Source: Nannocystaceae bacterium ST9
GTDB taxonomy: Bacteria; Myxococcota_A; Polyangia; Nannocystales; Nannocystaceae
NCBI GenBank assembly: GCA_048320885.1
Contig: JBLWFJ010000001.1
Span: 5,569,697-5,633,696 of the forward strand
DNA: 64,000 nt
Direction: 5' to 3'
Shown piece after piece: positions 1 through 52,460 of the stretch (its first letter is position 1; each line of letters begins with the position of its first letter). The notes under the pieces are model-generated. The model was given only the letters and a program-made list of their open reading frames with translations, did no database searches and was not told the origin of the DNA. A program made the translations under genes and the position numbers.

Positions 1-3000
1 GGTCGCCGCGCGTCGCCGATCGGGCAGGCGGCCAACGCCCGGTCGAGCAAGCTGGTCGCGCGCTCGCGTTGGCCGCTGGCGTGCAGGAGCTCGGCGCAGC
101 GACGGGTCAACGCGACACGATCGGCCTCGTGGGCCGGCGCGCCGACCAGGCCGGGCAGCTCGTCGAGTCGGGGATGATCGAGCAGCGGATCGAGCAGCGG
201 ATCGAGCAGCGGATCGAGCAGCGGGAGCAGCTGCTCGAGCGCGGGCTCGCTGCGGCCGGCCTCGGCCAGCGCGTCGCCGAGCCGGTATTGGAGATCGATC
301 CGGTCGGGCGCGAGCGAGCGCGCGTCGGCGAACGCGTCGGCGGCCAGGCCCGGCTCTCGATCGGCGCGCAGGCGCAGGCCGAGCTCGACGCGGGCGCGCA
401 GGCGGGTCGCGTCGTCGTGGGCGAGCCCGGCCTGTTCGGCGATCTCGTCGAGCACCGTGCTCGACAAGCCACCGATCCGCGCGCCGGCCTGCAAGGCCAA
501 GTCGAGCACCTCGGCCCAGCGCCCGCGCTCGCGCAGCAGGCCGAGCAGGCCCGAGAACGCCTCGCGATCGGCGAGCGCCCGCTCGGTCCGCTCGCGCAGG
601 ATGGCGGCGATCCGCGAGCTCGCGGGCGCCTGGCGGGTGGCGTCGCCGATCCGGCGCTCGAGGGCGGCGAGGCCGGCCGACCAGAGCCGAGCCAGCGCGG
701 ACTCGTGCAGGTCGAGCTCGCGGGCCAGTTCGTCGAGTCGCTCGCAGAGTCGATCGATCAAGGCGCCGAGCTCGGCGTGCTCGTGGGCGAGCCGCTCGAT
801 CAGCGTCGCGTGCAGCGAGGGATCGCCGGGATCGATCCGCGCGGCCGCCAGGGCCAGGCGATCGGCGCGGCTGCGATACGCGAGCCCACCCTCGCGCTCG
901 GCCACGTAGGCCAGGCCGAGCAGCTCGACGATCGGAGCGAGCGCGCCGGCGTCGAGCGCCAGGCTCTCGACCCCGCTCCACCAGGCCGCGACCGCCTTGA
1001 CCGAGTCGTGGGTCAAGGTCGCGCGCAGGGCCGCGATCGCGACGGGCAGTCGCTCGGGCGCGTACTCGCGAGCGACTCGCAGCGCCGAGCGAGCGAGCGC
1101 GCGAGCCAGCTCGGGCTCGCGCGGCTCGTCGATCCGATCGATCAAGCCGAGCAGTCGCTCGGCACACGGTTCGCCGGCCTCGCCGAGCAGGCGCAACATT
1201 CGGCCGACCAGCGCCTGCAAGCGATCGGCCGCGGCTTGCTGATCGAGCGCGAGGATCCGGCGATCGATCTCGGCGAGCTCCTCGTCGACCCGACCGAGCC
1301 CGCGGACCGCCCAGTCGCGCAGCTCGAGCAGCTCGCTGCGCTCGGCCAGCTCGGCGGGCAGGGCCTCGAGCGCGCGCAGGCAGGTGTGCGGATCGTCGAT
1401 CGCTCGCGCGGCCCGGGCGAGCTTCTCGATCATCCGCAGCGGCGGCTCGGCGGGCGGGTTGGCGGACTGCTCGGTCAGCAAGCTGGCGAGCAGCGCGACG
1501 AAGCGACCCTGCTCGCCCGCGCTCGCGCACAGGTCTTCGAGCGCGGCCAGCAGATCGAGCTCGTTGGGGTGACGACGCAGACCGGCGCGCAGCAGTTCGA
1601 AGCCGTCGGCGCGGCGATCGAGGCGGGTCGCGAGCAGCTCGGCCTCGGCCACGTAGGCGCGCGCGGGCAGCCGCTCGTCGAGGGCGAGGCGCAGCTGCTC
1701 GCGGGCCTCGGCCTCGCCCTGCGCCTGGGCGGCGTCTTCGTTCTCGCGCAGCAGCACGCGCTTGCCCTCGCGGGTGACCAGGCGCAGCCACTGCTCGGCG
1801 ACCTCGACGTGCAGACGAGACATCGGCTCGGCCTCGCGGGCGGCCTGGCGAATCGCGACCAGGGCCTCTTCGGGCCGCTCGAGCCGCTCGAAGGCCGAGG
1901 CTCGCTGGCGCAGGAGTTCGGCCCGCTCGATCGCCGCGCCGGCGCTCGGGTGCGCGAGCAGGGTCTCGCTCGCACGCAGCAGCAGCGGGGCGTCGTTGGT
2001 CCGCCGGCCGAGGTCGACCAGCCCGGTCAGCGCGCCCGCGTCGTTCGGATCGATCGCCAGCGCGCGCTCGAGCCAGCGGCGGGCCTGATCGAGCTCGTCG
2101 GCCTCGAGCGCGAAGCGGGCCAGCTCGCGCGCGGGGATCAAGAAGCGCGGATCGTCGGCGGGCAGGCGCTCGGCGAGCTGCCGCCAATGACCGAGCGCGG
2201 CTTCGCGATCACCTTCGGCCAGGCGCAGCTCGGCCAGCTCGAGCCGGGCTTCGAGGCGCTCGGGGGCGAGCCGCAGCAGCTGCTCGAGCAGGGCCGCCCG
2301 CTCGCGGATCGCCGCCACACGATCGTCGGTCTCGGCCGTCGGCTTGCCGAGCAGCGCGAGCAGGCGCTCGAGCTGGGCGACGGTCCGTGCTCGATCGCCG
2401 GCGTGCAGGCCGGCGTGGATGCGGGCGCGCAGCACCTGCTGAAGCCGCGGGCGATCGTCGAGCGCGCGCAGGCTGGCCTCGTAGGCGTCGGCCAGGCGAT
2501 CGTCGTCGGGTCGCAGCGCGTGCGCGCGAGCGTAGAGCTCGGCTCGCTCGCGCTCGTCGCCGGCCAAGCGAGCCGCGCGTTCGAGCCAGGGCAGGCTGTC
2601 TTCGCTGCCGGCCAGGGTCTCAGCGATCTCGCGGGCCAACCCGGCGGCCCGCTGCGACCAGCGGGGATCTTGGCTCGCGCGACCGAGCTCGATCAGCAGC
2701 TTGTGGAGCCGCTCGGCGACGGTCAGCCGCGACTTGAGCTGACGCAGCCGATGGCGGGCGAGATCGAGGAACTCGACCGCCCGCTCGCGCTCGCCGATCT
2801 CCAGGGCGAGCAGGCCACAGCGACGCGCGAGCGAGCCGAGCTGGGCGTGCAGCGATCCTTCGAGCTCGGGCTCGGGCTCGGTCGCCTCGATCTGCGCGAG
2901 CTCGGCCTGCAAGACCTCGAGCAGCGGCGCGAGCTGTTCGAGCGCGGCCGCGGCTCGGCCCGCTCGCTCGAGCGCGCGGCCGTAGCTCAGCTGGATCGTG

Positions 3001-6000
3001 CGATCGTCGGGTCGCAGCGCCCGAGCACGCGCGAGCTGTTCGACCGCGCGGCGCAAGCTGGTGTCGGTCAGCGCTCCGGTGTCGCGCTCGTCGGCCAGCA
3101 CGCGCGCGAGCAAGCTGGTGCCCGCCCGGCCGCGGGCCTCGGCCTCGATGTCGCTGCGCTCGGCCGCCGCCGCGTCGTCGGCGAGCTCGAGCCAGCGCTC
3201 GGGCTCGACCTCGCCGCCGCCGAGCTCGATCAGCTCGACCAGCTCGCTGAACGCCCCGAGCTTGCGCAGGGCCTCGCGCAGGGCGGCGAAGATCGCCGGC
3301 TCGCCGACGTGGCGAGCGGCCAGCTCGCGCAAGAACGCCGGCTGGTCGGCGAGCTCGAGCGTGCCGACCAGGCCGAGCAGGAGTCGGGCCTGGTTGCGCG
3401 CGTCGATCCGGTGGTTGGCGGCCAGGCGATCGAGCCGCTCGAGCGCGAGTCGAAGCTCGCCACCGGGCAGGCGCCGACGCGCGAGCGCGTGCAGGCCCGG
3501 GTGATCGGGGAAGTCGACGCTGGCGCGATCGAGCAGCATCTCGCCGAGCTCGGAGAACCCGGGCAGCTCGGCGATCGCGGCTCGATCGGCGGCCGCGACC
3601 AGCTCGCCGACCCGCTCGAGCGCCCGACGATCGCGGCTGGCCTGCTCGAGCGCCGACGCGGCGAACTGCTGCCACTGGCGACGCAGCGTGGCGACTCGCT
3701 CGCGAGCGCTGCGCTCGTCGGGATCGAGCTCGATCGCGAGCGCCGGATCGCCGACCAGCTCGAGCAGCCCCGCCAACGCGCGCACGCCCAGCGCCAGACG
3801 ATCGGGCGCGTGGCTGTGCAGCAGCTCGAGCGCCGAGTCGAGCAGCCAGACTCGCCGGCGACCGTGCACGTGCAGGCCGGCCGAGCCCGCGAGGTCGATC
3901 AAGCGGGCCGCGCAAGCCTCGATGTCGTGCTCGAGCAGGCGCAGCAGTCGATCGAGCAAGACCGGATCGCCGGCGGCGTCGCTGGCCTCGCCGAGCATGC
4001 GCTCGAGATCGGCGAGCTCGTCCTCGACGCGATCGAGCTTGCGGACCGCCCACACGCGCAGGTCGAGCAGCTCGGGCTCGGCCGCGGCTTGACCCGAGAG
4101 CCGATCGAGCGCGTCGAGGGTCGTGCGGGCGGCCTCGGCCGCGCGGGCCGAGAGCGCCAGCTCGCGCGCCAGCTCGTCGCGCTCGCGCCCGGGCGGCAGC
4201 GCGTCGACGACTCGCCGCTGCGATCGCAGCACGCGATCGCGATGCCGGCCCTGATCGTCGCCGGCCAGGCGCTCGAGTCGAGCGCGAACTCGGCCACGCA
4301 GCTCGCTGGCGCCGAGCGCCTCGCCGGAGGACTGGATCAGCAGGCCCTCGAGCAGCCCGAGCGCCGGATCGAGCTCGCCGAGCTCGATCGAGAGCTCGGC
4401 CTCGCGCAGGGTCTGCTCGCCGCTCAGCTCGGTGCCGAGGGCCAAGCGCAGCTCGGTGCGGGCTGCCAGCTCGCGGCGAGCTCGAAGCGAGGGATCGGCG
4501 TCGGCCAGCTGCGGGTGCGCGAGCAGGTCGAGCCAGCGCTGGGCGAGCTCGCGGTGGCGTTCGCTGCCGGGCTCGGTCGACGCGACCGCCCGCTCGAACG
4601 CCGCGATCGCCTCGAGCGGCTGACCGAGCAGGGCCTGGGCCCGCGCGACGTCGCCTTCGAGCTCGGCGAGCTGGTGGTGATCGAGGCCGGTCGGATGATC
4701 GAGCAGCGCTCGCGCGGCGATCAGCACCTTGCTCGGATCGTCGAGCATGCACGCGAGCGCGTGCCGGCGAGCGAGCGCCTCGGGGTCGTCGGGTCGCAGG
4801 AGCAGCGCCCGCTCGAGCAGGCGATGGGCGTCGAGCAGCTCCGCGGCCTCGTGCCTGCCGGGCGCCGGCTGCAAGCGCTGCTCGGCCAGCCGCTTGGCGA
4901 CTTCGAAGAGCCGGGGATCGTCGTCGCGCAGGCCGGGCTCGGCCAGCGCCCACAGCCGCAGCGCCTCGTGCAGCTCGGCGTGGCGCAGGCGTTGGCCGGC
5001 CAAGGTCATCAGCGCGTCGACGTCGCTCGGATCGAGGCGCAGCAGCTCCTCGTGCAGGGGGATCAACGCGTCGAGCCGATCGTCGAGCTCGCTCTCGTCT
5101 TCGCCGTCGCGCGCGGGCGTCGGCGCACGATCGTGGAGCAGCGCGATCCGGGCTCGCAGCGCGGCGATCCATCCGCTGCGCAGCGGCTCGTCGAGCGTGG
5201 AGGGATCGAGCTCGTCGAGGTCGAGCCCGGTCTGCGCGCGGGCACGACCGCGGAAGCGATCGAGTCGCTCTTGGCCGAGCTGCTCGAGCGCGGGACGATC
5301 GTCGAGCTCGCGCAGGCGAAGCTCGAGCTCGACGAGCAGCGACTCGTCCTCGGGGGCGAGCTCGTGCGCCCGCCCGAGCAGCTCGACCTCGCGTGGACCG
5401 CTCGCGCGCTCGGCCGCCGCGCGCAGCCACATCACCTGGGCCTCGACGTCCTCGAGCTCGGCTGCGCGTGCGCTGGCCAGCTGCACCGCTTCGTCGTCGC
5501 GCTCGAGCGCGACCAGGCTGGCGAAGAGCAGGGCGCTGGTCCGCTCGCGCAGCTCGACCGGCACGCGAGCATGCGCGGCGCTCAACAGCTCGCGGGCCCG
5601 CAGGTGATCGCCGAGCTCGCTGGCCAGCTCGCCGCAGCGCAGCGCCAGCTCGGCGGCTTCGACCCCGGCCTCCGACCAGCGCTGCTCGTCCCAGAGCGGC
5701 AGCAGGCAGGCCAGCGCGTCGCGGGCCAACGAGGGATCGGGCACGAACGCATGGAGGACCGCCTGCGCACGGCCGAGTCGCCAGCGTAGATCGGCGCGGC
5801 GCGGGGCGAGCTCGATCGCCCGGCGGAGCTCGGCGATCGCCCGCTTGGCCAGCTCGGCGTCGACGCTCTGCGGATCGTCGCCGAGCCCGGCGTCGCGCAG
5901 CAGCAGCGATCCGGCCCGAGCGCGCGCACGCACCTCGCTCTCGACGTCGCGATCGTCGGCGGCCGAGCCGGCGATCCGCAACCATGGTTCGACGCCGGCG

Positions 6001-9000
6001 GCCAGCTCGAGCCCGCGCTCGCTGGCCTTGCCGAGCAACCCGAGCAGCTCCGGCCAGCGCCGACGAGCCTGCAGGCGAGCGATCAGCTCGGCGAGCGCCG
6101 GCGGATCGTCGAGCCGGGCCTCGGCCTGCTCGCGCAGCAACCCGAGCGCGGCGGGCTCGTCGACGACCTCGACGACATGCTGCGCGAGCGCTTCGAAGAG
6201 CGCGCCCGTGCTCGCGGCCGGCAGCGAGCGCTCGCGGATCAGCGCGTTCAGCCAGGCCGCCGCGCGGGCGATCGTCGCCGCGTGCGGCTGAGCGTCGTCG
6301 ACGACCAATTGCTCGGCGGCGCAGCGCAGCCACAGCGCTCGGATCAGGCGCGCGTCGGAGGGGTTGGCGATCAGCCGCTCGCGCAGCAGCGCGTCGGTCC
6401 GCTCGCGCAGCTCGGCGTGCTCGAGCTCGCCGGCCAGCGCGAGCAGGCGCTCGAGCGTGGCGATCTCGCCCTCGGCCGCGATGACCTGCTCGAGCGCCGG
6501 CCAGCGGGCGAGCAGTCGCTCGCGTGCGCCGTGGCGAGCGAGCAGGGTCAGAGCGTCGAGCGCGAGCTCGATCGTCGCGATCCCATGCGGACTCAGCAGC
6601 TCGAGTGCGGCGTCGGCCAAGCTGGCCGCGACCTCGCGCTCGGCCTGCTCGGCGAGCGCCAGCAAGCGGCTCGCGCTGGCTCGCCGATCCTCGTCGTGCA
6701 GCGCGAGCAGGCGCGCGACCAGGCCCTCGCGCCGCGCACTCGCGAGCCCGGGCGCGAGCAGGCGGGCCTCGACGCTGGCCTGCTCCTCCTGGACCCGACC
6801 CAGCCGACGGATCGCCCACTCGCGCAGCTCGGCCAGCTCGCCGCGCTCGACTCGCTCGGGCTCGAGTTGGTCGAGTCCGAACGCGACGGTCGCCGGATCT
6901 TCGAGCGCGCGCCCGAGCTCGATCGTCAGCATCGCCGCCGCGTCGCCCTCGCGGGCGCGCGAGCGATCGCCGAGCGCCACTCGCAAGCTGCGGGCCGCCC
7001 GAGTAGCGAGCTCGGTCCACTCGCCGGTCGCTCGCCGACTGGCCAAGAGCTCGCGCAAGGCCGCGATCGCCCGCGGCTCGATCGTCGGAGCGCCGAGCAG
7101 CGCTTCGAGCCGCTCGATCGCCTGACCTGGACGATCGAGCGCGCGCGCCAGCAGATCGATCTCGGCCAGCCGCTCGTCGAGCTCGAGCTCGACGCCCGGG
7201 GTCTCGCGCAGCACGGCCCGCGCTCGCGCCTGCGCGGCGAGATCGTCGAGCGCCAGGCCGACGCGCAGCCACGCTCGGTTGCCGGCCTCGCGCTCGCGCG
7301 AGCGGACCAAGCCGGGGCTCAGTCGCTCGGCTCGCGCGAACGAGTCGAGCGCGGCCCGACCCTGGTTCGGATCGCCCTCGCGTTCGAAGAGCCGGGTCAG
7401 CGCGCGCGCGCGGGCCAGCTCGAGCGTGGCGCGGTGCTCGTCGGACTCGCCGGCGTCGAGCAGCGCGAGCTGGGCCGCGACGGCCTCGGACGCGAGCGTG
7501 GGATCGTCGATGTCCTGGGCGACCTCGGCGAGCAGCGCGAGCGCGTCGCGATGGCTGGGATCCAGTCGCAGCGCTCGCTCGACCAACCCGTGTGCGAGCT
7601 CGGGCTCGCTGGTGTCGAGCGCGTGGCGAGCCAGCGCCAGCGCCGGTCGCAAGAAGCGAGGATCGTCGGCGTCCAGGCGCTCGCCCGCGACCGTCCACAG
7701 CTGGCGTGCTTGCTCGTGATCACCCTGCTCGTCGCGCAGGTTGCCGAGGATCAGCAGCGCGGTCGTGTGCTCGGGCCGCAAGACCAGCAGATCCTCGAGC
7801 AGCTCGGCCAACTCGTCGCGCCGGCGATCGAGGGCCTCGTCCTGCTCGACCACGCCGATCAGTCGCTCGAGCAGCTCGGCGCGCAGGGCCGGATCGGCGC
7901 GTCGCTCGATCTGCCCGCGCAGGTGCAGCTCGAGTCGCTCGATCTCGCCGCGCTCGCGCAGCGCCTGCTCGAGCTCGTCGGCCAGCGCGAGGTCCTCGGG
8001 GCGCAGCTCGACCGCGCGCTCGAGCAGCTCGATCCGCGTGCTCGGCAGCCCGTCGACCGGCTGGTCGAGCTGATCGAGGCGCTCGACCCCGGCCTCGTCG
8101 AGCACCCGAGCCGCGCGCGCGAGCCAGGCCCCGAGCCGCTCGTCGGCGTCGTCGCGACCGAGCAGCCCGCTCGCGTGCTCGAGCGCGATCGCCAGCGCGC
8201 GCGCGTCTTCGGCCAGCTCGCGCAGGGCCACGAAGGTCTGCTCGGCGATCGCCTCGCGCAGCGCCGGATCGACCAGCTCGGGATCGGCCTGGGCCAGCTC
8301 GCGCTCGCAGGTCGCGAGCAAGTCGGCGGCCTGCTCGAGCTCGCCGACCTCGCGCAAGAGTCGAGCGAGGCGCAGGCTCAGCTGGCCGCGCTCGCTCGGC
8401 GTGGCCCGGGCGTCGTCGTCGAGCAGCGCCTGCAGCTGCGGGATCGCGTGCTCGGGCCGAGCGAGTCGCTCGTAGCAGTCGGCCAGGGCCGCGCGCAGCT
8501 CGAGGCGATCGGGGGCGAGCAGCAGCGCGCGCTCGAGCTGCTCGCTGGCCTCGGCCAGCTCGCCGCGGGCCAGCAGCGTCCGACCCAGGCGGGCGCGGGC
8601 GTGCAGCTCGGTCGCTCGCTCGCGCAGCCGGACCGCGGCCTTGGCCAGCCGCGCCAGACCTTCGCGATCCTCGTCGTCGAGCAGCTGCTCGATCTGCGCG
8701 AGGATCTTCTCGGGCCGATCGAGCTCGTCGACCGCCGCCCACAGGTCGGCGAGTCGCTCGTGGATCCGCAGGGCCTGGGCCGCGCGTTCGACCAGCGCCT
8801 CGCCGCGTCGCTGCCCGCGAGCGTGGACGATCAACAAGTCGAGGATCCGCGCGCGGTCGGTCGGCGGAGCCAGCTCGAGCGCGGCCTCGAGCACGTCGAG
8901 CACCCAGGCTCGCTTGCTGGCCCGCTCGCCGAGCGTGCCGCGATCGAGCGACTCGCCCGACGTCGGGATCGCGCCGGCGACCGAGCGCAGGCTCTCCCAG

Positions 9001-11174
9001 GCCTCGTCGATCCGACCGGCGCGCTTGAGCAGGCGGGCGCGCTCGAGCAGCAGCGCGTCGCGATCGTCGAGCTCGGCCTCGCCGAACGCGTCGATCTCGA
9101 GCAGTCGGCCGAGGTAGTCGGCGGCCGCCATCGCGTCGCCGAGCTTGCGCTCGAGCGCGGCGCCTCGGCGAAGCAGATCGACGTCGCCGGGATCCTGATC
9201 GATCGCGATCGCCAGCTCGCGGCGGGCGAGCTCGTGGTGCTCGCGATCGTCGAGCTCGCTGGCCAGCGCGATCAGCCGCTTGCGCAGACCCTGGCGCTCG
9301 CCGGGCGCGGCCTGCTCGAGCCGCATGCGCAGCAGCGTGGTCGCGGTCGCCCGCTCGTCGATCCGCAAGGCCAGATCGATCGCCCGATCGAGCAAAGCGA
9401 GGTCGTCGGGGTCGTCGGCGATCGCCGCGGTCAGCAGCGCGAGCGCGTGGTTGAGGCCGCCGAGCTCGGAGCTCCCGTGCTCGATGAAGCCGCGCGCGAC
9501 CTGGGCGCGAAGATCGGCGCGGCGCCGCGGGTTGCGGGTGTGCTCGAGCGCCTCTTCGAGCGCCTCGAGCACGTGCGGCACGGTGGTCAACGATCGTCGC
9601 TCGCGGGCCAGCTCGGCCACGCGCGCGCGGGCCAGCACGACCAAGGCCTCGGGCAGCAGCGCCGACAGCATGCCATGCAGCGCCCGCGCGGCCGCTTCGT
9701 CGGGATCGCTGCGCTCGGACACGCGGGCGATCGCTCGGCGATCGCGACTGCTGGCCAGCTGCTCGCGCAGGCGCTGCGTCAGCGGACCGATGATCGCCAG
9801 CGCGCTGCGAGCATCGTCGAGTCGATCGATCAGCAAGCTCGCGACCGCGAGCTCGAGTCGGGCCTGCACGCCGGGCGGATGCGGCTGGCGGCAGTCGGCC
9901 GCGAGCAGGCGCGCGAGGTCTTGCGCGCGACCCTCGGCGGCCAGCAAGATCGCCAGCAGCCGTCGCGGCTCGCGGGCGCTCGGCTGGAGATCCAGCCACT
10001 CGCGGACCGCCTGCAGGGCCTCGCCGCGATCGAGGAAGCGAGCCAGGTCGACGCGCCAGCGGACCAGCGCCAGGTGGGCGGCGGGGAACGACTCGAGCGT
10101 GTGCGAGAGCCCAGCCAGCTCGCGCAGCGCGGGCCCCAGCGCCTCGCTCGGGCTCGGCGTCGAGTTCATCAGCCGCAGCAGCTCGCGGGCGCGGTCGAGT
10201 CCGCGGGCGATCGGTTCGTCGAGCAGCCCGGGCTCGCCCGGCAACGAAGCGACGGCAGCGAGCGCGTCCTCGCTGGGCTGTGCCGGCCATGCCGGGTCGG
10301 CGACTTCGTGTTCGCCAGGCTCGAACTCGGTCAGCGGCCCGCGCAGTTCGAAGGTCGCGCCACGCCGACTCAGGGCCAGCTCGGTGACCACGCAACCCTC
10401 GAGGTTCGGCGCCTTCCAGCCGACCGACGCGAACGCGCGGGTCATCGCCAGCCGAGCCGGGTCGATCGTCAGCGTGCCTTCGTCGCCGGCGACCACGGCC
10501 TCGCGCAGCCCGGCGATTCGACCGGCGGCCAGCCGCTTGGCGATCGCTCGCCAGAGTCGGCGGGCCGAGGTGTCGCGACCTTCGCGATCGATCGACGCCG
10601 TGCGAGCGCGGCCCTCGTCGTGCTCGTCGGCGTGCACGAGCGCGGCCGGCAGATCGCCGATCAACCACAGTCGACAAGGGCGCAGCGCGAGCCGGCGCTG
10701 CTCCGGCAGCAGATCGAACGCGACCAGCAGCCAGACCTGCTTGCCGGTCGTGGTCTCGCCGCCGATCATCAAGCATGGCCGCGGCCGCTCGGCCTCGGGC
10801 AGCTCGCGGCGCAGATCGATCTCGACCTCGCGGATCCGCAGGCCGAGCAGCGACTGATCGATCAGCCGTTCGCTCAGCCAGGGCAGCAGCGCGCGGTCTT
10901 CGATCACCAGCGTCGCGCGAACCACTCGGCAGCGACGCTTGCGAAACTTGGTCGCCGTCAGCGGCCCACGCAGCGGCATGCGGACGCCGGGGATCAGCGC
11001 CTCGTACTCGCGCAGCCGCACGCCCGGCGCGAGCGTGCGACGGACCAGGGCCAGCAGCGCTCGCCGCTCGCGAAACAGCAACGAAAACCCGAGCACGTTG
11101 CCGACACCGGGACCTTGTCCCGGAGCGTCGGCCGTGGGCTGCTCATCGTCGTGGTTCGGAGGCTCGACGCTCAC
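1..11174 (-). CDS. Giant (>=3,700 aa) alpha-helical/TPR-like repeat protein, 3' end beyond window start; N-terminal ~270 aa non-repeat domain then thousands of residues of A/L/R/E/D-rich helical repeats
   Basis: The + frame 0 ORFs (69..5789, 6177..11282) use rare codons (CAA, CGA, GTA, GAT, GAA, CAT, CTT, GTT) whose complements are the preferred codons of this genome (TTG, TCG, TAC, ATC, TTC, ATG, AAG, AAC). The in-register minus frame is therefore the real one. That frame has no reported ORF because it never hits a stop before position 1 (edge-truncated ORFs are absent from the track; compare the unlisted HlyD gene at 62995..64000). Hand translation of the minus frame from 11174 downward gives a plausible protein with ideal GC3. 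Start uncertain: GTG at 11172-11174, alternatively GTG near 11292-11294. Confidence 0.6.
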   Translation of the reverse strand, partial: MSVEPPNHDDEQPTADAPGQGPGVGNVLGFSLLFRERRALLALVRRTLAPGVRLREYEALIPGVRMPLRGPLTATKFRKRRCRVVRATLVIEDRALLPWLSERLIDQSLLGLRIREVEIDLRRELPEAERPRPCLMIGGETTTGKQVWLLVAFDLLPEQRRLALRPCRLWLIGDLPAALVHADEHDEGRARTASIDREGRDTSARRLWRAIAKRLAAGRIAGLREAVVAGDEGTLTIDPARLAMTRAFASVGWKAPNLEGCVVTELALSRRGATFELRGPLTEFEPGEHEVADPAWPAQPSEDALAAVASLPGEPGLLDEPIARGLDRARELLRLMNSTPSPSEALGPALRELAGLSHTLESFPAAHLALVRWRVDLARFLDRGEALQAVREWLDLQPSAREPRRLLAILLAAEGRAQDLARLLAADCRQPHPPGVQARLELAVASLLIDRLDDARSALAIIGPLTQRLREQLASSRDRRAIARVSERSDPDEAAARALHGMLSALLPEALVVLARARVAELARERRSLTTVPHVLEALEEALEHTRNPRRRADLRAQVARGFIEHGSSELGGLNHALALLTAAIADDPDDLALLDRAIDLALRIDERATATTLLRMRLEQAAPGERQGLRKRLIALASELDDREHHELARRELAIAIDQDPGDVDLLRRGAALERKLGDAMAAADYLGRLLEIDAFGEAELDDRDALLLERARLLKRAGRIDEAWESLRSVAGAIPTSGESLDRGTLGERASKRAWVLDVLEAALELAPPTDRARILDLLIVHARGQRRGEALVERAAQALRIHERLADLWAAVDELDRPEKILAQIEQLLDDEDREGLARLAKAAVRLRERATELHARARLGRTLLARGELAEASEQLERALLLAPDRLELRAALADCYERLARPEHAIPQLQALLDDDARATPSERGQLSLRLARLLREVGELEQAADLLATCERELAQADPELVDPALREAIAEQTFVALRELAEDARALAIALEHASGLLGRDDADERLGAWLARAARVLDEAGVERLDQLDQPVDGLPSTRIELLERAVELRPEDLALADELEQALRERGEIERLELHLRGQIERRADPALRAELLERLIGVVEQDEALDRRRDELAELLEDLLVLRPEHTTALLILGNLRDEQGDHEQARQLWTVAGERLDADDPRFLRPALALARHALDTSEPELAHGLVERALRLDPSHRDALALLAEVAQDIDDPTLASEAVAAQLALLDAGESDEHRATLELARARALTRLFEREGDPNQGRAALDSFARAERLSPGLVRSREREAGNRAWLRVGLALDDLAAQARARAVLRETPGVELELDERLAEIDLLARALDRPGQAIERLEALLGAPTIEPRAIAALRELLASRRATGEWTELATRAARSLRVALGDRSRAREGDAAAMLTIELGRALEDPATVAFGLDQLEPERVERGELAELREWAIRRLGRVQEEQASVEARLLAPGLASARREGLVARLLALHDEDRRASASRLLALAEQAEREVAASLADAALELLSPHGIATIELALDALTLLARHGARERLLARWPALEQVIAAEGEIATLERLLALAGELEHAELRERTDALLRERLIANPSDARLIRALWLRCAAEQLVVDDAQPHAATIARAAAWLNALIRERSLPAASTGALFEALAQHVVEVVDEPAALGLLREQAEARLDDPPALAELIARLQARRRWPELLGLLGKASERGLELAAGVEPWLRIAGSAADDRDVESEVRARARAGSLLLRDAGLGDDPQSVDAELAKRAIAELRRAIELAPRRADLRWRLGRAQAVLHAFVPDPSLARDALACLLPLWDEQRWSEAGVEAAELALRCGELASELGDHLRARELLSAAHARVPVELRERTSALLFASLVALERDDEAVQLASARAAELEDVEAQVMWLRAAAERASGPREVELLGRAHELAPEDESLLVELELRLRELDDRPALEQLGQERLDRFRGRARAQTGLDLDELDPSTLDEPLRSGWIAALRARIALLHDRAPTPARDGEDESELDDRLDALIPLHEELLRLDPSDVDALMTLAGQRLRHAELHEALRLWALAEPGLRDDDPRLFEVAKRLAEQRLQPAPGRHEAAELLDAHRLLERALLLRPDDPEALARRHALACMLDDPSKVLIAARALLDHPTGLDHHQLAELEGDVARAQALLGQPLEAIAAFERAVASTEPGSERHRELAQRWLDLLAHPQLADADPSLRARRELAARTELRLALGTELSGEQTLREAELSIELGELDPALGLLEGLLIQSSGEALGASELRGRVRARLERLAGDDQGRHRDRVLRSQRRVVDALPPGRERDELARELALSARAAEAARTTLDALDRLSGQAAAEPELLDLRVWAVRKLDRVEDELADLERMLGEASDAAGDPVLLDRLLRLLEHDIEACAARLIDLAGSAGLHVHGRRRVWLLDSALELLHSHAPDRLALGVRALAGLLELVGDPALAIELDPDERSARERVATLRRQWQQFAASALEQASRDRRALERVGELVAAADRAAIAELPGFSELGEMLLDRASVDFPDHPGLHALARRRLPGGELRLALERLDRLAANHRIDARNQARLLLGLVGTLELADQPAFLRELAARHVGEPAIFAALREALRKLGAFSELVELIELGGGEVEPERWLELADDAAAAERSDIEAEARGRAGTSLLARVLADERDTGALTDTSLRRAVEQLARARALRPDDRTIQLSYGRALERAGRAAAALEQLAPLLEVLQAELAQIEATEPEPELEGSLHAQLGSLARRCGLLALEIGERERAVEFLDLARHRLRQLKSRLTVAERLHKLLIELGRASQDPRWSQRAAGLAREIAETLAGSEDSLPWLERAARLAGDERERAELYARAHALRPDDDRLADAYEASLRALDDRPRLQQVLRARIHAGLHAGDRARTVAQLERLLALLGKPTAETDDRVAAIRERAALLEQLLRLAPERLEARLELAELRLAEGDREAALGHWRQLAERLPADDPRFLIPARELARFALEADELDQARRWLERALAIDPNDAGALTGLVDLGRRTNDAPLLLRASETLLAHPSAGAAIERAELLRQRASAFERLERPEEALVAIRQAAREAEPMSRLHVEVAEQWLRLVTREGKRVLLRENEDAAQAQGEAEAREQLRLALDERLPARAYVAEAELLATRLDRRADGFELLRAGLRRHPNELDLLAALEDLCASAGEQGRFVALLASLLTEQSANPPAEPPLRMIEKLARAARAIDDPHTCLRALEALPAELAERSELLELRDWAVRGLGRVDEELAEIDRRILALDQQAAADRLQALVGRMLRLLGEAGEPCAERLLGLIDRIDEPREPELARALARSALRVAREYAPERLPVAIAALRATLTHDSVKAVAAWWSGVESLALDAGALAPIVELLGLAYVAEREGGLAYRSRADRLALAAARIDPGDPSLHATLIERLAHEHAELGALIDRLCERLDELARELDLHESALARLWSAGLAALERRIGDATRQAPASSRIAAILRERTERALADREAFSGLLGLLRERGRWAEVLDLALQAGARIGGLSSTVLDEIAEQAGLAHDDATRLRARVELGLRLRADREPGLAADAFADARSLAPDRIDLQYRLGDALAEAGRSEPALEQLLPLLDPLLDPLLDPLLDHPRLDELPGLVGAPAHEADRVALTRRCAELLHASGQRERATSLLDRALAACPIGDARR
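177..224 (-). repeat. Perfect 4x tandem 12-bp repeat (atcgagcagcgg)4 inside the giant gene; encodes (LLDP)4 in the minus coding frame
   Basis: Read directly in sequence at 177-224; in-frame with the giant minus-strand CDS. Confidence 0.8.
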
Positions 11175-11407
11175 CGGAAATTCGCTGCCCGAGGGTCGCG
11201 CGGGCCGCTGAGTATAGCGACAAAACCGAGCGCCGGGTCGATCCGGGCGGTCGGTCTGGAAGCCCGATCGGGAGCCCCGTGAGACGAGCGGCACGGCGCA
11301 CGTGTACAGGTCGGTTCGCCCCGCCCCGCGCTCTGCGGGATCGAGCGCGATCCGGACGACGCGCGAAACACCGGATCGCCGCCCCGCGTATGCTCGTCGG
11401 GCCACCC

Positions 11408-12523
11408 ATGAGGACACTCGGAAGCCACGCGAAGGGTCTGCGCCTCGAACGGATGAAGGCCTCGCCCTCGTGGGTCGAGGGCAGCTTTCGCAACATCCAC
11501 CCGATGCTGCCCAACCTGCGCAGCGGTGTGATGCCCAGCGTCGGCGAGTTCTTCCGCGGCGGCGGCCGGCGAGTCCCCGACGCGCCGCTGCCCTCGCTCG
11601 ATCCCCGCGAGGCCTGGGCGCGGCCGATCGACACCGGCCTGCGCGCGACTTGGCTGGGCCACTCGACCGTGCTGATCGAGATCGACGGCGCGCGGGTGCT
11701 GACCGATCCGGTCTGGGGCGAGCGCGTCTCACCGCTCGGCTTCGTCGGACCCAAGCGCTTCCAGCCGGTGCCGATCGCGATCTCGGCCCTGCCCGAGCTC
11801 GACGCCGTGATCGTCTCGCACGATCACTACGACCACCTCGACTACCCGACCATCCGCCAACTCGCCGACGCCGAGGTCCCCTTCGTGACCTCGCTGGGCG
11901 TCGGCGCCCACCTCGAGGCTTGGGGCGTCGCCAGCGAGCGAATCTTCGAGCTCGACTGGTGGGAGACCTGGCAGCACCCGCGCAAGGACCTGACCATCAC
12001 CGCCGCGCCCTCGCAGCACTTCTCGGGCCGCACGCCGGGCAAGCGCAACAGCACGCTGTGGTCCTCGTTCGTCACTCGCGGCTCTCGCCACGCCGCGTTC
12101 TTCAGCGGCGACACCGGCCTGACCACGCAGTACGCCGAGATCCGGGCCAAGCTCGGTCCCTTCGACCTGATCATGCTCGAGGTCGGCGCCCACCACCCCG
12201 CCTGGGGCGACATCCACCTCGGCCCCGACAACGCGCTCGCGGCCCTCGATCTGCTCGGCGGCGGCGCGTTCTTGCCGGTCCACTGGGGGACCTTCAGCCT
12301 GGCGATCCACGAGTGGGACCAACCGGTCGAGCGCCTGCTCGAGCTGAGCCCACGGGCGGGCGTGCAGTTGGTGTTGCCGCGGATCGGCGAGGTCGTCGAG
12401 CCGGCGCGGGTCGAGTCGGTCGACATCTGGTGGCGGGCGGGGGGGATCCGCGAGCCTTCGGTTCGGGAGGTCGAGACGCCGAGCGACGCCGACGCGCAGA
12501 CGGTCGAGTGGCCGATCGATTGA
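11408..12523 (+). CDS. MBL-fold metallo-hydrolase (HxHxDH motif 'HDHYDH'; NAPE-PLD/Zn-dependent hydrolase-like)
   Basis: Real portion of ORF 10775..12523; ATG at 11408 (alt ATG 11390); strong GC3 codon bias; metallo-beta-lactamase motifs. Divergent from the giant gene. Confidence 0.85.
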   Translation: MRTLGSHAKGLRLERMKASPSWVEGSFRNIHPMLPNLRSGVMPSVGEFFRGGGRRVPDAPLPSLDPREAWARPIDTGLRATWLGHSTVLIEIDGARVLTDPVWGERVSPLGFVGPKRFQPVPIAISALPELDAVIVSHDHYDHLDYPTIRQLADAEVPFVTSLGVGAHLEAWGVASERIFELDWWETWQHPRKDLTITAAPSQHFSGRTPGKRNSTLWSSFVTRGSRHAAFFSGDTGLTTQYAEIRAKLGPFDLIMLEVGAHHPAWGDIHLGPDNALAALDLLGGGAFLPVHWGTFSLAIHEWDQPVERLLELSPRAGVQLVLPRIGEVVEPARVESVDIWWRAGGIREPSVREVETPSDADAQTVEWPID

Positions 12524-12539
12524 TTCGTCGAGCGTCGAT

Positions 12540-13187
12540 TCACGTGTCCCGAGAGCTCGGTGAAACGAGATCGTCGATATCGAAGTTGGTTCGGACTTCG
12601 ATTTTTGCCTGGTCATAGACGGCCGCGAGGTGCTTCCGCGTATTGTTGCGAACGATGGGCGAGAGATCCAGATCTGCCGTGCAGAACAAACGCAGGTGTT
12701 CCGGCGCCAACTCGGTGGCGCGGACGAGTACGGCGGCGAGAATGGTCTCGTCGAAGGGCTTGAGTCCGGGATCCGGGACTTCCGTACGCAGCGAGATCGA
12801 ACGATTCAGCATCGCCTCGTCGAGAGCGAAGACGTTCATGCCTCTCGAGTTGGCGACCTCGGCAATTCGATCATCCAAATGAGCGAGTTCCATGGCCACG
12901 GTGTTCGAGAATCGGGTCAGGAAATCATTGGCGGCCGCCGACTCACGTGAGTCGATTTGTCCGTGCTCCACTGCCCATTTGCGAAATTGCTGGAGAATTG
13001 CCTGTTCCTTTGGCTGGTATTTTCGTAGGATGACGGACTTCGCCTCGCGCAAGGCGATGCTCGGAACATGCATCGAAATCTCGCCCCTCGCCGCGCGGTC
13101 GAGCAAGGCCAGCGCGGAAGGGGACCGACGGAATGCGGGAGCGCAGACGTCCACGACCCAGTTCGACTCGACGAACACGTGGATCAT
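12540..13187 (-). CDS. Hypothetical 215-aa protein, PIN-like N-terminus (MIHVFVESNWVVD...), low-GC foreign gene
   Basis: ORF 12540..13187; ~58% GC with A/T-ending codons (aaa, gaa, att, ttt, aat), atypical for this genome. Start ATG overlaps the upstream gene's stop (ATGA). Confidence 0.6.
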   Translation of the reverse strand: MIHVFVESNWVVDVCAPAFRRSPSALALLDRAARGEISMHVPSIALREAKSVILRKYQPKEQAILQQFRKWAVEHGQIDSRESAAANDFLTRFSNTVAMELAHLDDRIAEVANSRGMNVFALDEAMLNRSISLRTEVPDPGLKPFDETILAAVLVRATELAPEHLRLFCTADLDLSPIVRNNTRKHLAAVYDQAKIEVRTNFDIDDLVSPSSRDT

Positions 13188-13621
13188 CAGTGCTCCGCGA
13201 CCACTCGTCCATCGGCGACGGCGGGGAGGACATAGCGAGCGACGTCCCAGCGAACTTCTTCATTGAGGTTGTCGGATGAACCCGACGTGAGCGATTCGAG
13301 CCAGCGCTCGACGATCGATTGAAACTCGCGTTCGTCTTCGGGAACATTGGCAATCCCGAGCAGCGTCGCGGTCGGATAGATGCCGGTTTCGCGGATCGAG
13401 TCTTCGCCCTCGTAGGTGTCACGCAACAACCAGGTCAGTTCGGGCGTGAAGATCAGTCCGATGGGGCAGTTGCTGGCCAGCATGTAGGACTTCATCTGCG
13501 CGAGCGCGCCGGCGCGATCGAAACCACGGCGCTTCAGCTCCACCACGAGCCGTCGCTCCGGGAGATCGGGAGCGAACACGGTGAAGTCGGCGGAGGGACC
13601 GGAGCGCGACATGGTGAGCAT
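13187..13621 (-). CDS. Small (144 aa) PD-(D/E)xK nuclease-fold protein (type I restriction enzyme HsdR N-terminal-like; motif PDL...VELK)
   Basis: Real 3' portion of ORF 13187..14566 starting at MLTMSRSG; PD-x(n)-ExK motif 'APDLPERRLVVELK'; lower GC; translationally coupled (ATGA) to the downstream PIN-like gene. Confidence 0.6.
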   Translation of the reverse strand: MLTMSRSGPSADFTVFAPDLPERRLVVELKRRGFDRAGALAQMKSYMLASNCPIGLIFTPELTWLLRDTYEGEDSIRETGIYPTATLLGIANVPEDEREFQSIVERWLESLTSGSSDNLNEEVRWDVARYVLPAVADGRVVAEH

Positions 13622-13677
13622 GCTAGCACGAGCGCGCTGCGTGGTGCTCGCCTGCCAGTGTTCGGCGAACAACGGCT

Positions 13678-14964
13678 TCACGCCGTCGCGACCGGCCGCT
13701 TCTCCGCCCGCATCAACCACCCGATCAACGGCGTCGCCATGAACGTACTGACCAAGGCCATGATCACCAGCATCGTGAACATGTCCCGCGGCACCACGCC
13801 CATGTCGTAGCCGATGTTGATCACGATCAGCTCCATCAGCGCGCGCGTGTTCATGCACACCCCGATCGTCAGCGCGCTGCGGTTGGTCTCGCCGACCGCC
13901 TTGGCGGCCAGGAACGCCCCGCCGAATTTCGACCCGAACGCCACGCAGATCACCAGGGCACACACCGCCAGCCCCCACCAGCCGTCGAGCGTGCCGATGT
14001 CGGTGCGCAGGCCGGTGTAGGCGAAGAACACCGGGAGCAGCAGCATCATCACCAGCGGCGAGACCCGCTCTTTCCACAGCGCGACGAACTTGCGGTCGTC
14101 GTGCAGGGCGATGCCGATCACGAAGCCGCCGATGATCGCGAACACGCCCAGCGAGCTGGTGATCGAGGCCGAGGCGAAGAGCACGATCAGCAGGACCGCG
14201 ATGGTCGGCAGGCCGAGCCCGCCGCGCCGGACGAGCTCGCGGGCGATGTACTTCTTGAGCAGCGGGCGGGCGATGAAGAACACGCCCACCACGTAGGCGC
14301 CGATCAGCCCGATTCGCTCGAGCGCCCACACGAAGGTGAATTGCTCGGCGACGATCAGGCTGACCGAGCCCAGCAGCAGCCAGCCGATCACGTCGTCGAT
14401 CGCCGCCGAGCCGATCACCAGCGCCGCGGTCCGGGTGTGCGAGAGGCCCAATTCCATGAAGATCCGGCCGAGGATCGGGATCGCGGTGATCGACATGGCG
14501 ACGGCGAAGAAGAGCCGAAACCCGAGCAACGAAGGCCGCGGATCGGCGAGCTGCTCGTGAAACCATGGCGCGGTGAAGTAGCCGGCCAAGAAGGGCAACA
14601 GCAGGCCGGCCAGGCTGACCGCGACGACCGAGACCTTGCGCTGGCCGAGCTGCTCGCCGAACTCGAATTCCAGACCGATCTGGAACATCAGCAAGATCAG
14701 CCCGATCTGCGCGATGCCGACGAAGATGGTCGAGGTCGAGGGATGAAAGATCTGGGTCGAGAGCTCGGGGAAGAGCAGGCCGAGCGCCGAGGGTCCGAGC
14801 AGCAAGCCGGCGAGGATCTCGCCCGACACGTCGGTCTGGCCGAGCCGCCGGACGAGCACCGTGACGATCCGTGTGGCCAGCAAGATGACCAGCAATTGGA
14901 TCAACAGGTGGAGGACCAACTCCTCCGTCTTCGAACCGACCGCGGTCGTGACTTCGGCGAGCAT
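13678..14964 (-). CDS. Cation:proton antiporter (CPA2/Kef/NhaP-type monovalent cation:H+ exchanger)
   Basis: ORF 13678..14985; multi-TM protein with typical CPA2 N-terminus (...LLIQLLVILLATRIV...GEILAGLLLGPS); start likely Met at 14964. Confidence 0.85.
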   Translation of the reverse strand: MLAEVTTAVGSKTEELVLHLLIQLLVILLATRIVTVLVRRLGQTDVSGEILAGLLLGPSALGLLFPELSTQIFHPSTSTIFVGIAQIGLILLMFQIGLEFEFGEQLGQRKVSVVAVSLAGLLLPFLAGYFTAPWFHEQLADPRPSLLGFRLFFAVAMSITAIPILGRIFMELGLSHTRTAALVIGSAAIDDVIGWLLLGSVSLIVAEQFTFVWALERIGLIGAYVVGVFFIARPLLKKYIARELVRRGGLGLPTIAVLLIVLFASASITSSLGVFAIIGGFVIGIALHDDRKFVALWKERVSPLVMMLLLPVFFAYTGLRTDIGTLDGWWGLAVCALVICVAFGSKFGGAFLAAKAVGETNRSALTIGVCMNTRALMELIVINIGYDMGVVPRDMFTMLVIMALVSTFMATPLIGWLMRAEKRPVATA

Positions 14965-15025
14965 GCGAGCATCGTCCCTTCGCACTCCTGGCGACGCAAG
15001 GGTTGCGTGCGTGCGAACGAGTGGA

Positions 15026-16222
15026 TCAGAAGTCCGCGACGATCACACCGATGTAGGGCGGCGGCGCCAACAAGCTGCCGCCCACGGCGAAGCGCGGGCC
15101 GCCCGAGAACCCGAACACCGCGTGCAGCACCATCGGCGTCGGGCTGTCCTCCTCGATCACTTCGTAGCCGCCCGGCATCACCGAGAGGATCGTTCCCGCG
15201 ATCCCGACCGCGGTGATCGGCCCGGCTGGATCGACCCACATGCCGTTGAGGCCCGGGGTCGTCAGCGTCTGCCCGATCCAGGTCTCGGTCTCGCTCTCGA
15301 GCCGAGCGATGTGGCCGTTCGCGCGCCCACCGGCCGCGACGATGCCCTCGCTCGGCGTGCCCCACAGGCTGATCAGATCGACCGCGGCCGCGCTCGGATG
15401 AGCGGTCCAGCTCGCTCCGTCCCAGTGCAGCGTCGCGCCGCGATCACCGACGGCCCACACGTCGCTCGCGCTCGTCCCCCAGATCTTGAACAGCCCGTGC
15501 GAGACCACGCCGAGCTCGGGCAGCTCGACCAGCGACCAGCTCTCGCTCGCGCCATCGCGACGCAGCAGCACCGGCACGTCGGAGGTCCCGTCGCCACCGA
15601 CCGCCCACAGCTCGTCCTCGCTCGCGCCCCACAGGCCCCACAAGATCGTGTCGGTCGGGCTGACCTCGCTCGACCAGCCCTCGCCGTCGCGGACCAGGAT
15701 CGCGCCCGCTCGCCCGACCGCCCACACCCGGCCGTCCACGCCGTAGACCCAGTCGAGCATCGGCGTGCCGGGTGGCAGCGACTCGGGGATCCAGTCGATC
15801 CCGTCGAAGCGCAAGGCCGTGCCGGTGTTGGGTTGGATCTGTCCGCCGACCGCATGAACCTGGTCGGGGCTCGAACCCCACACGCTCATCATCGCGCCGC
15901 CGCGCTCGTCGAGCTGCTGAACCACCTGCCAGCCCGGATCGCCTCCGCTGTCGGTGGTCTCCGATTCGTCGCCGGTCTGCGTGCTGGTGTCGGTGTCGCT
16001 CGCCTGACCATCCGAGCTGGTGTCGCTCTCGCCCTGACCCTCGGTACTGGATTCGCCGCTTTCGCTCTCCGATCGATCATCGCTGGACGTCGCGGCGTCG
16101 CTGGTCGGCGCGACCTCGCTCGTCGAATCGCTGGTCTGCGCGTCATCGCTCGTCGCGGACGCGGCATTCGTGCACCCACACGCGAGCAGGGTCGAGAGGA
16201 CGGCTCGAAATTGCGGCGACAC
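15026..16222 (-). CDS. Lipoprotein with Ser/Thr/Asp/Glu-rich acidic linker and beta-propeller-like domain (repeated W-A-V-G motifs; Ycf48/BNR-like)
   Basis: ORF 15026..16312; GTG start at 16222 gives signal peptide MSPQFRAVLSTLLAC (lipobox LLAC); low-complexity linker then repeats 'VWAVGxxGxxLxxDGxxW'. Confidence 0.7.
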   Translation of the reverse strand: MSPQFRAVLSTLLACGCTNAASATSDDAQTSDSTSEVAPTSDAATSSDDRSESESGESSTEGQGESDTSSDGQASDTDTSTQTGDESETTDSGGDPGWQVVQQLDERGGAMMSVWGSSPDQVHAVGGQIQPNTGTALRFDGIDWIPESLPPGTPMLDWVYGVDGRVWAVGRAGAILVRDGEGWSSEVSPTDTILWGLWGASEDELWAVGGDGTSDVPVLLRRDGASESWSLVELPELGVVSHGLFKIWGTSASDVWAVGDRGATLHWDGASWTAHPSAAAVDLISLWGTPSEGIVAAGGRANGHIARLESETETWIGQTLTTPGLNGMWVDPAGPITAVGIAGTILSVMPGGYEVIEEDSPTPMVLHAVFGFSGGPRFAVGGSLLAPPPYIGVIVADF

Positions 16223-16281
16223 GTGCTCGCAGGATAGCGAGCATGCTGGCGAGCGGCGAGCGAAACGTGGATGCTGACGCC

Positions 16282-17175: not shown

Positions 17176-17176
17176 T

Positions 17177-18316: not shown

Positions 18317-18352
18317 GCCCGGAAGCGGGCGCGAGGGCAAGTCGTCAGCGCC

Positions 18353-19799: not shown

Positions 19800-19872
19800 G
19801 CGCGTACGATCGCCCAGAGCGGCGAGGATCGGTGAGTGGCAGGAACGACAATGTTCGGTCCATACTTGCCAA

Positions 19873-20994: not shown

Positions 20995-21168
20995 AGCCCG
21001 GCAGCGGGCCCATGATTCCGGCCGCATAGCCCGTTGGTCGGTCACGGAGACGTCCGCGAAGGATCCCCCTCGAAGGCACCTTGATCCCAACGCCGAGGTG
21101 AGCCGGCTCATGCACTCAGAGCCATTCGAAGCGAATAGAACAGCGTACGAGCCGTGTGGTGTTCGCCC

Positions 21169-22746: not shown

Positions 22747-22839
22747 CCGATGGGCGTGAGCGAAATCTCGACTCGAGCCAATCAAAAACCGTCCGACTCC
22801 GCCCGACGAGGGCGACAAATCCTCGTCCTCCACTGTGAC

Positions 22840-31207: not shown

Positions 31208-31352
31208 CACGTGAATATGATATCATTGAAGCGCGCGAATGTCAAGTCGAGTCCACGATGGGCGGGTGGCCCATCGCGCTCACGCGACCGCACGGACCAC
31301 GATAGCGCGTTCGGAATGAGCAGAGGGCTGAGCTGCGAGAGCCCGGAGCTGA

Positions 31353-52354: not shown

Positions 52355-52460
52355 GGCTACCGGCGCGGACGCTCGGGCATTTCCGGGATTGCAGTCGACG
52401 AAGCGTGAGTTTGACCCGATCGCTGGCGAGCGGCGGAATGCCGCGCTATCGATCGCCGCG

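Follow-up and report, generated by a model that had tools for sequence, protein, structure and literature searches.

The window analysed here, a 64,000-nt stretch of the Nannocystaceae bacterium ST9 genome (assembly GCA_048320885.1, contig JBLWFJ010000001.1, positions 5,569,697 to 5,633,696 of the forward strand), opens within a giant gene that occupies its first 11 kb on the minus strand. We consider it probable that this gene, of marine myxobacteria, encodes a giant, acidic, soluble and cytoplasmic protein of tetratricopeptide repeat (TPR)-type helical repeats, functioning as a non-enzymatic, elongated and multivalent scaffold, of which approximately the first 59% is encoded in the window. 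What is new is descriptive, namely a likely length of ~6,300 aa, a fourfold module of 915 aa, an undescribed head domain shared by giant Myxococcota TPR proteins and a peptidase-like tail. The kind of protein is already known, as giant myxobacterial TPR scaffold proteins, and orthologues stand in public databases under 'hypothetical' or 'tetratricopeptide repeat'; what sets the gene apart is chiefly its size and the repeated 915-residue module. An earlier reading of the same DNA, referred to here as the first-pass annotation, had recognised the gene and overlooked both the ~915-aa super-repeat and the likely ~6,300-aa length. The giant gene and the two longest open reading frames (ORFs) opposite to it are as follows:

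3..11174, minus strand: giant gene, GTG start at 11174, 3,724 codons without a stop, exits at the window edge
69..5789, plus strand: shadow ORF of 1,906 aa, antisense of the giant gene, not a gene
6177..11282, plus strand: shadow ORF of 1,701 aa, antisense of the giant gene, not a gene

Both plus-strand ORFs lie in a single frame that is codon-for-codon antisense to the minus frame, in exact register with it. The codon usage of each frame was assessed by a sense-versus-antisense log-likelihood, using a codon table trained on the window's other long ORFs, 18 in number. The minus frame scored +678 bits, with a positive value in each of the 18 segments of 600 nt into which it was divided, whereas the plus-strand ORFs scored -316 bits (69-5789) and -374 bits (6177-11282). 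G+C at codon positions 1/2/3 was 0.85/0.49/0.89 in the minus frame and 0.89/0.49/0.85 in the plus frame, and thus of the two per-frame measures put forward in the first-pass annotation, codon likelihood separated the frames while GC3 (0.89 versus 0.85) hardly did. Comparison with orthologous DNA gave mismatch fractions at minus-frame codon positions 1/2/3 of 0.21/0.20/0.39 for locus L002 and 0.28/0.26/0.42 for locus L003; read as the plus frame, the first codon position would be the fastest to change, unlike the evolution of a coding sequence. At amino-acid identities of 55-68%, synonymous sites are saturated. TPR models of Pfam and NCBIfam matched the minus translation only, protein homologues were found for that translation, and the translations of the plus-strand ORFs gave zero matches to Pfam and NCBIfam. 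Gene callers on related public contigs had also picked the TPR strand, the same as the minus frame, contrary to the earlier expectation that annotation pipelines would mis-call it.

The length of the shadow ORFs has a simple origin. Of the 3,724 codons of the giant gene in the window, one is CTA and none is TTA or TCA; these three are the reverse complements of the stop codons, and it is because they are almost never used that the plus-strand ORFs remain open. The sole CTA codon (Leu 1796, nt 5787-5789) is the reverse complement of the TAG that divides the two plus-strand shadow ORFs. Two further long shadow ORFs are present in a second minus frame, at 2620-7698 (1,692 aa; -1359 bits) and 7720-10776 (1,018 aa; -801 bits). 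The amino acid composition of the plus-strand ORFs had been described as lacking I, F, Y, W, M and K; Y is indeed absent and W, K, M and also N are near zero, but I (2.5-3.1%) and F (1.1-1.2%) are present. That either the plus-strand ORFs or the two ORFs of the second minus frame are the true genes, as their great length and, for the former, a coding-like G+C profile might suggest, has practically no probability left, being ruled out by four negative codon log-likelihoods, by third-position divergence, which would make the first codon position of the plus frame the fastest, and by the codon avoidance of the true frame that accounts for the openness of the plus-strand ORFs, which moreover match no Pfam or NCBIfam model and were passed over by the callers on related contigs. 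The real gene is the minus-strand frame in register with the plus-strand ORFs, as the first-pass annotation had held. It was missing from the ORF list used there only because it leaves the window, and its 'hidden' status is thus an artefact of a list that drops such ORFs, an ordinary gene-finding problem. The locus offers a worked example of how a high-GC gene avoiding TTA, CTA and TCA casts antisense ORFs nearly its own length, and of how third-position divergence from orthologues resolves the strand where GC3 barely separates the frames.

In the minus frame (first codon bases at c mod 3 = 2) only one stop was counted, at 11999; from 11996 down to base 1 there is none, which agrees with the stop-free run from ~11174 to position 1 reported before. 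From base composition about 54 stops are predicted per 3,800 codons, and when the region was shuffled 200 times the longest open frame reached 835 codons, so that an open frame of 3,724 or more codons is far beyond chance. That the frame stays open past 11174 is accounted for by GC content alone. Translation from GTG 11174 (read M-SVEPPNHDDE...) matches the first residues of homologues P0001-P0006, as it does the start of each homologue extending to the N terminus, and the start formerly placed at ~11174 is thus retained. The same interval, 3..11174 on the minus strand, was the top-ranked call of a simple gene finder in the window (2,010 bits). The in-window product has a mass of 410 kDa, a pI of 5.2 and a net charge of -146; it is poor in K, N, M and Y. 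Neither a transmembrane segment nor a signal-peptide-like N terminus was detected in it. Its parts, with approximate boundaries for the modules, are listed below:

10305..11174, minus strand: N-terminal alpha/beta 'head' domain, aa 1-290, of which aa 1-27 are disordered; conserved N-terminally in giant Myxococcota TPR proteins
10734..10772, minus strand: 'P-loop-like' stretch LMIGGETTTGKQV (aa 135-147; also given as MIGGETTTGKQVW, aa 136-148), inside the head domain; variable surface loop
8625..10304, minus strand: non-repeated region between head and module 1, aa 291-850, probably helical, collinear with single-module relatives
5865..8624, minus strand: module 1 of the ~915-aa super-repeat, ~aa 851-1770, with DDPRF at aa 1170 and LREWAIRRLGR at aa 1451
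3105..5864, minus strand: module 2, ~aa 1771-2690, with DDPRL at aa 2085 and LRVWAVRKLDR at aa 2373; holds the sole CTA codon (aa 1796)
375..3104, minus strand: module 3, ~aa 2691-3600, with DDPRF at aa 3007 and LRDWAVRGLGR at aa 3286
3..374, minus strand: start of module 4, aa 3601-3724, ending at the window edge; contains a 12-nt repeat at nt 176-224

Internal BLAST of the giant protein revealed offsets of ~915 and ~1,835 aa at 30-40% identity, and two motifs recur at this spacing, DDPR[FL] at aa 1170, 2085 and 3007, and LRxWA[IV]RxLxR at aa 1451, 2373 and 3286. Modules 1 to 3 are thus complete in the window, and module 4 is represented by its first ~120 residues. Anchors of the LRxWA[IV]RxLGR type number three in the window protein and four in its Enhygromyxa salina orthologue, with one each in the relatives P0009, P0012, P0019, P0022 and P0026. 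Three Pfam families passed their gathering scores with the minus translation, TPR_CcmH_CycH (61.1 versus 42), TPR_11 (40.8 versus 26.8) and TPR_17 (27.7 versus 24.4), and by sequence the giant protein falls into the TPR clan. TPR_CcmH_CycH and TPR_11 match module 3 (aa 2958-3055), and further Pfam TPR matches lie in module 1 (aa 855-923 and 1126-1158). These matches are scattered over thousands of Leu/Ala/Arg/Glu-rich residues and bear out the claim of the first-pass annotation that TPR-like repeats follow the N-terminal domain. No enzymatic family of Pfam or NCBIfam was matched by the in-window translation, and HExxH is absent from the protein. Within the gene, a perfect 12-nt tandem repeat of 4.1 copies at nt 176-224 encodes PLLD four times; the E. 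salina orthologue carries other short in-frame repeats (DLSS, IDRE and LDQ), and the difference between the two suggests slippage-prone sites.

The nearest proteins are those of an Enhygromyxa sp. metagenome-assembled genome (MAG; P0001, 68% identity, partial) as well as of Plesiocystis pacifica strain SIR-1 (PPSIR1_01674, P0005, partial), together with proteins from metagenome contigs. A scan of species-representative genomes yielded one locus, in E. salina SWB007 (L003, NZ_PVNL01000048.1), in which the ORF 41..19042 is intact throughout and encodes 6,333 aa (694 kDa). Residues 7-3724 of the window protein are collinear with this ORF at 54.7% identity, and the ORF extends 2,478 residues further. 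A full length of about 6,200-6,350 aa, or about 0.7 MDa, is thus probable for the window gene, and the earlier figure of >3,700 aa, which holds for the 3,724 codons in the window, probably falls well short of the whole. The E. salina orthologue, with which the P. pacifica fragments PPSIR1_01674 and PPSIR1_01662 are grouped, has the head and the module order of the window gene; it has other flanking genes, and its full length is directly seen, in contrast to the window copy, which is cut. At 50-55% identity, it is probably from another species than the window, whose organism is probably a relative of Enhygromyxa and Plesiocystis. Beyond the part encoded in the window, a conserved C-terminal helical region of ~1,340 aa, ending ...WLLRALG, is found in L003, P0047 and P0048; it terminates in an M48/HtpX-like fold without the catalytic HExxH.

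Shorter relatives of 2,700-3,170 aa align with the head, the post-head region, one module and the C-terminal region of the E. salina protein. Their sole module is most similar to the fourth E. salina copy, and their ~1,340-aa C-terminal region is 38-49% identical to that of E. salina. Among these Nannocystaceae and Myxococcota proteins, P0009, P0012, P0019, P0026 and P0027 share with the window protein the head (32-47% identity), the non-repeated stretch next to it and a module with RxWA[IV]; in contrast to it they have one module and not four, and where named they are labelled 'hypothetical' or 'tetratricopeptide repeat protein'. The Enhygromyxa/Plesiocystis lineage has thus gone from one module to four. 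The module copies of the window and E. salina proteins align by position far better than the copies align with each other; the amplification is therefore older than the split of the two and not an assembly artefact.

A decaying pseudogene, or an artefact of repeat assembly, might be suspected from ENA ERZ26695310 contig_84 (L001/L009), on which the orthologue was called in four pieces of 523, 3,351, 459 and 952 aa. The first of these breaks (L001 11380-11680) comes down to one extra G at about 11438 relative to the window reading (PLTQ-RLREQ), and the breaks, which resemble single-base errors, are probably errors of assembly and not a true split. We regard decay or misassembly of the window locus as very improbable, given 3,724 intact codons where about 54 chance stops would be expected, a third-position-biased divergence that speaks for purifying selection, an intact E. 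salina gene of 6,333 codons, and modules only 30-40% identical, which an assembler could not collapse or expand.

The head was modelled by AlphaFold2 with 24 homologues as an alpha/beta fold at residues 28-280 (pLDDT 85.5, pTM 0.80), in keeping with the non-repeat N-terminal domain proposed before. It is covered by no Pfam or NCBIfam model, a Foldseek comparison with the PDB gave nothing significant, and its resemblance to a TULIP-like fold is weak, with marginal fold scores. The giant gene carries the head motif VGNVLGFSL...FRxRRC...GWKAP from residue 1 of a protein of >2,000 aa. With this head and its three module anchors it fits an undescribed giant head-TPR-tail family of Nannocystaceae, delimited here by the head, by one or more ~915-aa modules with the anchor and by the ~1,340-aa C-terminal region. 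A HMMER search with the head domain against 1.84 billion representative proteins returned only 39 matches at E<=1e-3, 27 of them with E below 1e-20, and in 14 of these 27 the domain stands at residue 1 of a protein of 2,100-3,170 aa; a word-indexed homologue search with the head-domain profile returned 9 proteins only. Across the searches, all matches bearing an organism name are from Myxococcota, mostly from Nannocystaceae. The head is an undescribed domain that also stands at the front of other giant TPR proteins across Myxococcota.

The first-pass annotation had also noted a weak P-loop within the N-terminal domain, and this part of it was not upheld. The stretch in question, GETTTGKQ, is without the S/T of Walker A and varies in length and sequence, with indels, among homologues; Walker A (GxxxxGK[ST]) is absent from the entire in-window protein, and no NTPase or STAND family of Pfam or NCBIfam was matched by the minus translation. 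A P-loop or STAND NTPase was thus ruled out by the absent Walker A, the non-conserved loop and the zero family matches.

We favour a scaffold because TPR families pass their cut-offs while no enzymatic family, no Walker A or HExxH and no transmembrane segment or signal-peptide-like N terminus is found, and because the product carries a net charge of -146; its location is probably cytoplasmic. Taken together with the E. salina protein, the architecture would run from a head of ~290 aa through ~560 aa of non-repeated, probably helical sequence and four modules of ~915 aa to the C-terminal region of ~1,340 aa. Each module could offer identical partner-binding surfaces, the head, and perhaps also the degenerate peptidase-like tail, may dock the protein to a membrane or to an envelope-associated partner, and the quadrupling of the module would multiply valency and length relative to the single-module relatives. 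BepA, a periplasmic protein of about 490 aa, is catalytically active with HExxH. Compared with such BepA/YfgC-type proteins (M48 peptidase plus TPR), the giant protein would have the reversed domain order, no HExxH, a cytoplasmic location and about 13 times the size.

Several points weigh against a scaffold as set out above. The genes around the giant gene in the window are unrelated housekeeping genes or genes of unknown function, which lend no functional support from context. The ppiD-like/mreB synteny of single-module relatives, described below, is missing from the window and from L001, L002 and L003. Canonical TPR scores are confined to a few segments within the 3,724 aa, and the alpha-solenoid nature of the modules is read from an L+A+R+E content of 60% and from the scattered TPR matches. 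The full length and the C-terminal domain are likewise predicted from the orthologues, the window ending at codon 3,724.

If the full length equals that of E. salina (6,333 aa, 694 kDa), the product would be a very large bacterial protein without a recognisable enzymatic domain, in a phylum in which very large genes have already been remarked to be frequent (bioRxiv 10.1101/2023.11.21.568195). The presence of one versus four modules, with the motifs kept in each copy, provides a handle on whether module number sets valency or complex size, and the ppiD-like/mreB neighbourhood of the single-module relatives is a place to seek function. The sole characterised analogue, GltI, is itself poorly understood.

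GltI/AgmK (MXAN_4863) is the cytoplasmic TPR scaffold of the Agl-Glt gliding machinery of Myxococcus xanthus (PMC11761067; PMC3169522). It is a giant protein of ~1,100 Å with a large helical C-terminal domain, for which binding of six FHA domains of GltG and a scaffolding of several motor complexes have been predicted (PMC11761067). The M. xanthus protein has 3,822 aa, that of Stigmatella 4,089 aa, and those encoded by three Anaeromyxobacter genomes have 4,074-4,104 aa (PMC11761067; PMC3169522). In M. xanthus, Stigmatella, Anaeromyxobacter and Sorangium gltI adjoins gltJ, gltH or gltG (PMC3169522, Table S3), and the published list of homologues covers complete genomes only, and not Plesiocystis (PMC3169522 supplement). 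GltI and the giant protein have in common a giant size, TPRs, a large helical C-terminal region and a restriction to Myxococcota, the window protein having at least 3,724 aa, TPR matches and named relatives that are all Myxococcota; for GltI, too, no signal peptide or transmembrane helix is predicted, and repeated binding sites for a partner domain have been proposed. Unlike GltI, the window gene lies outside a glt cluster, and its product is predicted to be ~1.6 times longer, with four ~915-aa modules and an M48-like fold in its tail.

These likenesses raise the alternative that the gene is the Nannocystaceae orthologue of gltI, enlarged by module duplication, and that its product belongs to the bacterial focal adhesion of Agl-Glt gliding. 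Neighbouring genes were read across the whole window, upstream in L001 and L002, downstream in L009 and on both sides in L004, L006, L007 and L008, while the short downstream flank of L003 was read as ORFs only. No FHA/TonB family or other glt-type neighbour was present at the window, L001, L002, L009, L004 or L006-L008, whereas the known gltI genes sit in glt clusters beside gltJ, gltH or gltG. Among the matches of the searches that bear an organism name, none is from Myxococcus or Stigmatella, most matches, and all of those from the HMMER search, carrying no such name. On the other side, the head is homologous (hhalign, 99.9%) to the N termini of TPR ORFs of >3,400 aa in loci of 75-81% GC, which are related to a fragment from an Anaeromyxobacteraceae MAG, and Anaeromyxobacter GltI has 4,074-4,104 aa. 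Furthermore, locus L015 has six genes upstream of its giant ORF and beyond them another ORF, which the locus end cuts, in agreement with the six locus tags that lie between Adeh_3311 and gltH. Membership among GltI orthologues is not supported by synteny; we consider such orthology unlikely, and the scaffold proposed here is read as analogous to GltI.

A second alternative arises from the single-module relatives and from the weakly TULIP-like head. On four independent contigs (L004, L006, L007 and L008, around 8,000-20,000) a ppiD-like gene, with SurA_N and rotamase domains, either overlaps the giant gene or stops no more than 5 nt short of it, and a gene of ~485-500 aa follows; in the two cases translated (L004 and L006) the product of this last gene shows a hydrophobic N-terminal segment and a stretch rich in proline. 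In three of the four (L004, L007 and L008; not L006) rodA-pbp2-mreD-mreC-mreB lie divergently upstream. The protein might on this evidence be an envelope or cell-shape factor that acts together with the MreB/Rod system and a membrane chaperone of PpiD type, the head perhaps binding a membrane lipid. The ppiD-like/giant/~485-aa arrangement of the single-module relatives whose neighbours were read is, however, not that of the window gene, and the synteny is lost in the Enhygromyxa-type genes as a whole; the TULIP-like fold scores are marginal, and adjacency to mreB may reflect conserved gene order and not a common function. An envelope or cell-shape role of this kind is improbable, and the scaffold remains the reading we prefer.

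Weak matches of the head domain in metagenomes led to 16 loci with giant ORFs, using the query pair P0041 and P0040; a metagenome scan with P0040 alone gave no locus. In loci of 75-81% GC (L012, L014, L020 and L022) the head starts open frames of >2,800 to >3,440 aa, all of which leave their contigs, and a fragment related to these loci comes from the Anaeromyxobacteraceae MAG mentioned above. In two loci of 58-60% GC, L023 and L025, it starts complete genes of 3,350 and 3,335 aa. The giant ORFs of L012 and L023, the two scanned and one of each kind, carry TPR matches. Comparison of the two head-domain alignments by hhalign gave 99.9% probability and E = 6e-34 over 213 columns. Outside the head, a single weak BLAST match links the two complete genes with the E. 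salina protein, and there is none for the high-GC ORFs. Upstream of the metagenome giant ORFs lie genes for a ~1,100-aa S41 peptidase, a PEGA protein and a T2SSE ATPase, with no recognisable glt genes, and the complete genes in L023 and L025 are not followed by a zinc-ribbon ORF of gltJ type.

The head could define an undescribed, Myxococcota-wide superfamily of giant cytoplasmic scaffolds, which may include GltI. The ancestral form would then act in Nannocystaceae together with a PpiD-like chaperone, beside the MreB/Rod operon, and Enhygromyxa and Plesiocystis would have quadrupled a 915-aa partner-binding module to give a protein of ~700 kDa that could serve as a molecular ruler or as a multivalent organiser of envelope or motility complexes. 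We put this wider scheme forward as a speculation, doubtful as it stands.

As regards the surroundings of the giant gene in the window, its start faces a divergent gene on the plus strand for a protein of metallo-beta-lactamase fold, coding from ATG 11408 or 11453 and ending at 12523, and the two are separated by the following region:

11175..11407, no strand: divergent intergenic region between the giant gene and the plus-strand metallo-beta-lactamase-fold gene

A scan of this spacer (233-278 bp, depending on the ATG) for promoters and terminators found none, including no sigma-70-like site. Region 1-11400 has 75% G+C, against about 64-72% elsewhere in the window, and the GC minimum of the window (0.644, at 12001-14000) directly adjoins the giant gene. 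No Pfam family was matched by the small ORFs in this stretch, 12540-12971 and 13187-13720.

The other predicted genes of the window, 42 in number, were scanned against Pfam with the exception of two short ones, 52389-52706 and 62995-63999, the latter leaving the window. Neighbours include, besides the MBL-fold hydrolase, an Na+/H+ exchanger, parts of an ABC-2 transporter, a GST, an AraC-type regulator, an M13 peptidase, an acyl-CoA dehydrogenase, a ribonucleotide reductase, an S9 peptidase and proteins of unknown function; no relatives of motility proteins, MreB or PpiD were found among the scanned neighbours. At 21154-22746 and 22750-24453 on the plus strand are tandem paralogues (530 and 567 aa) that share 81-83% identity and could not be placed convincingly in a Pfam family. 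A DUF222 and HNH endonuclease gene (29912-31210, minus strand) lies in a local GC dip (0.66) and may be a mobile or selfish element. Between 32359 and 38102 on the plus strand, two distant paralogues of 784 and 729 aa (25-29% identity, no Pfam match) are followed by an MtrC/MtrF-type multihaem cytochrome gene (36945-38102). Lastly, a 369-aa protein encoded at 55578-56687 on the minus strand, 44 kb from the giant gene and showing no link to it, has weak, below-cut-off zinc-ribbon matches at its N terminus.

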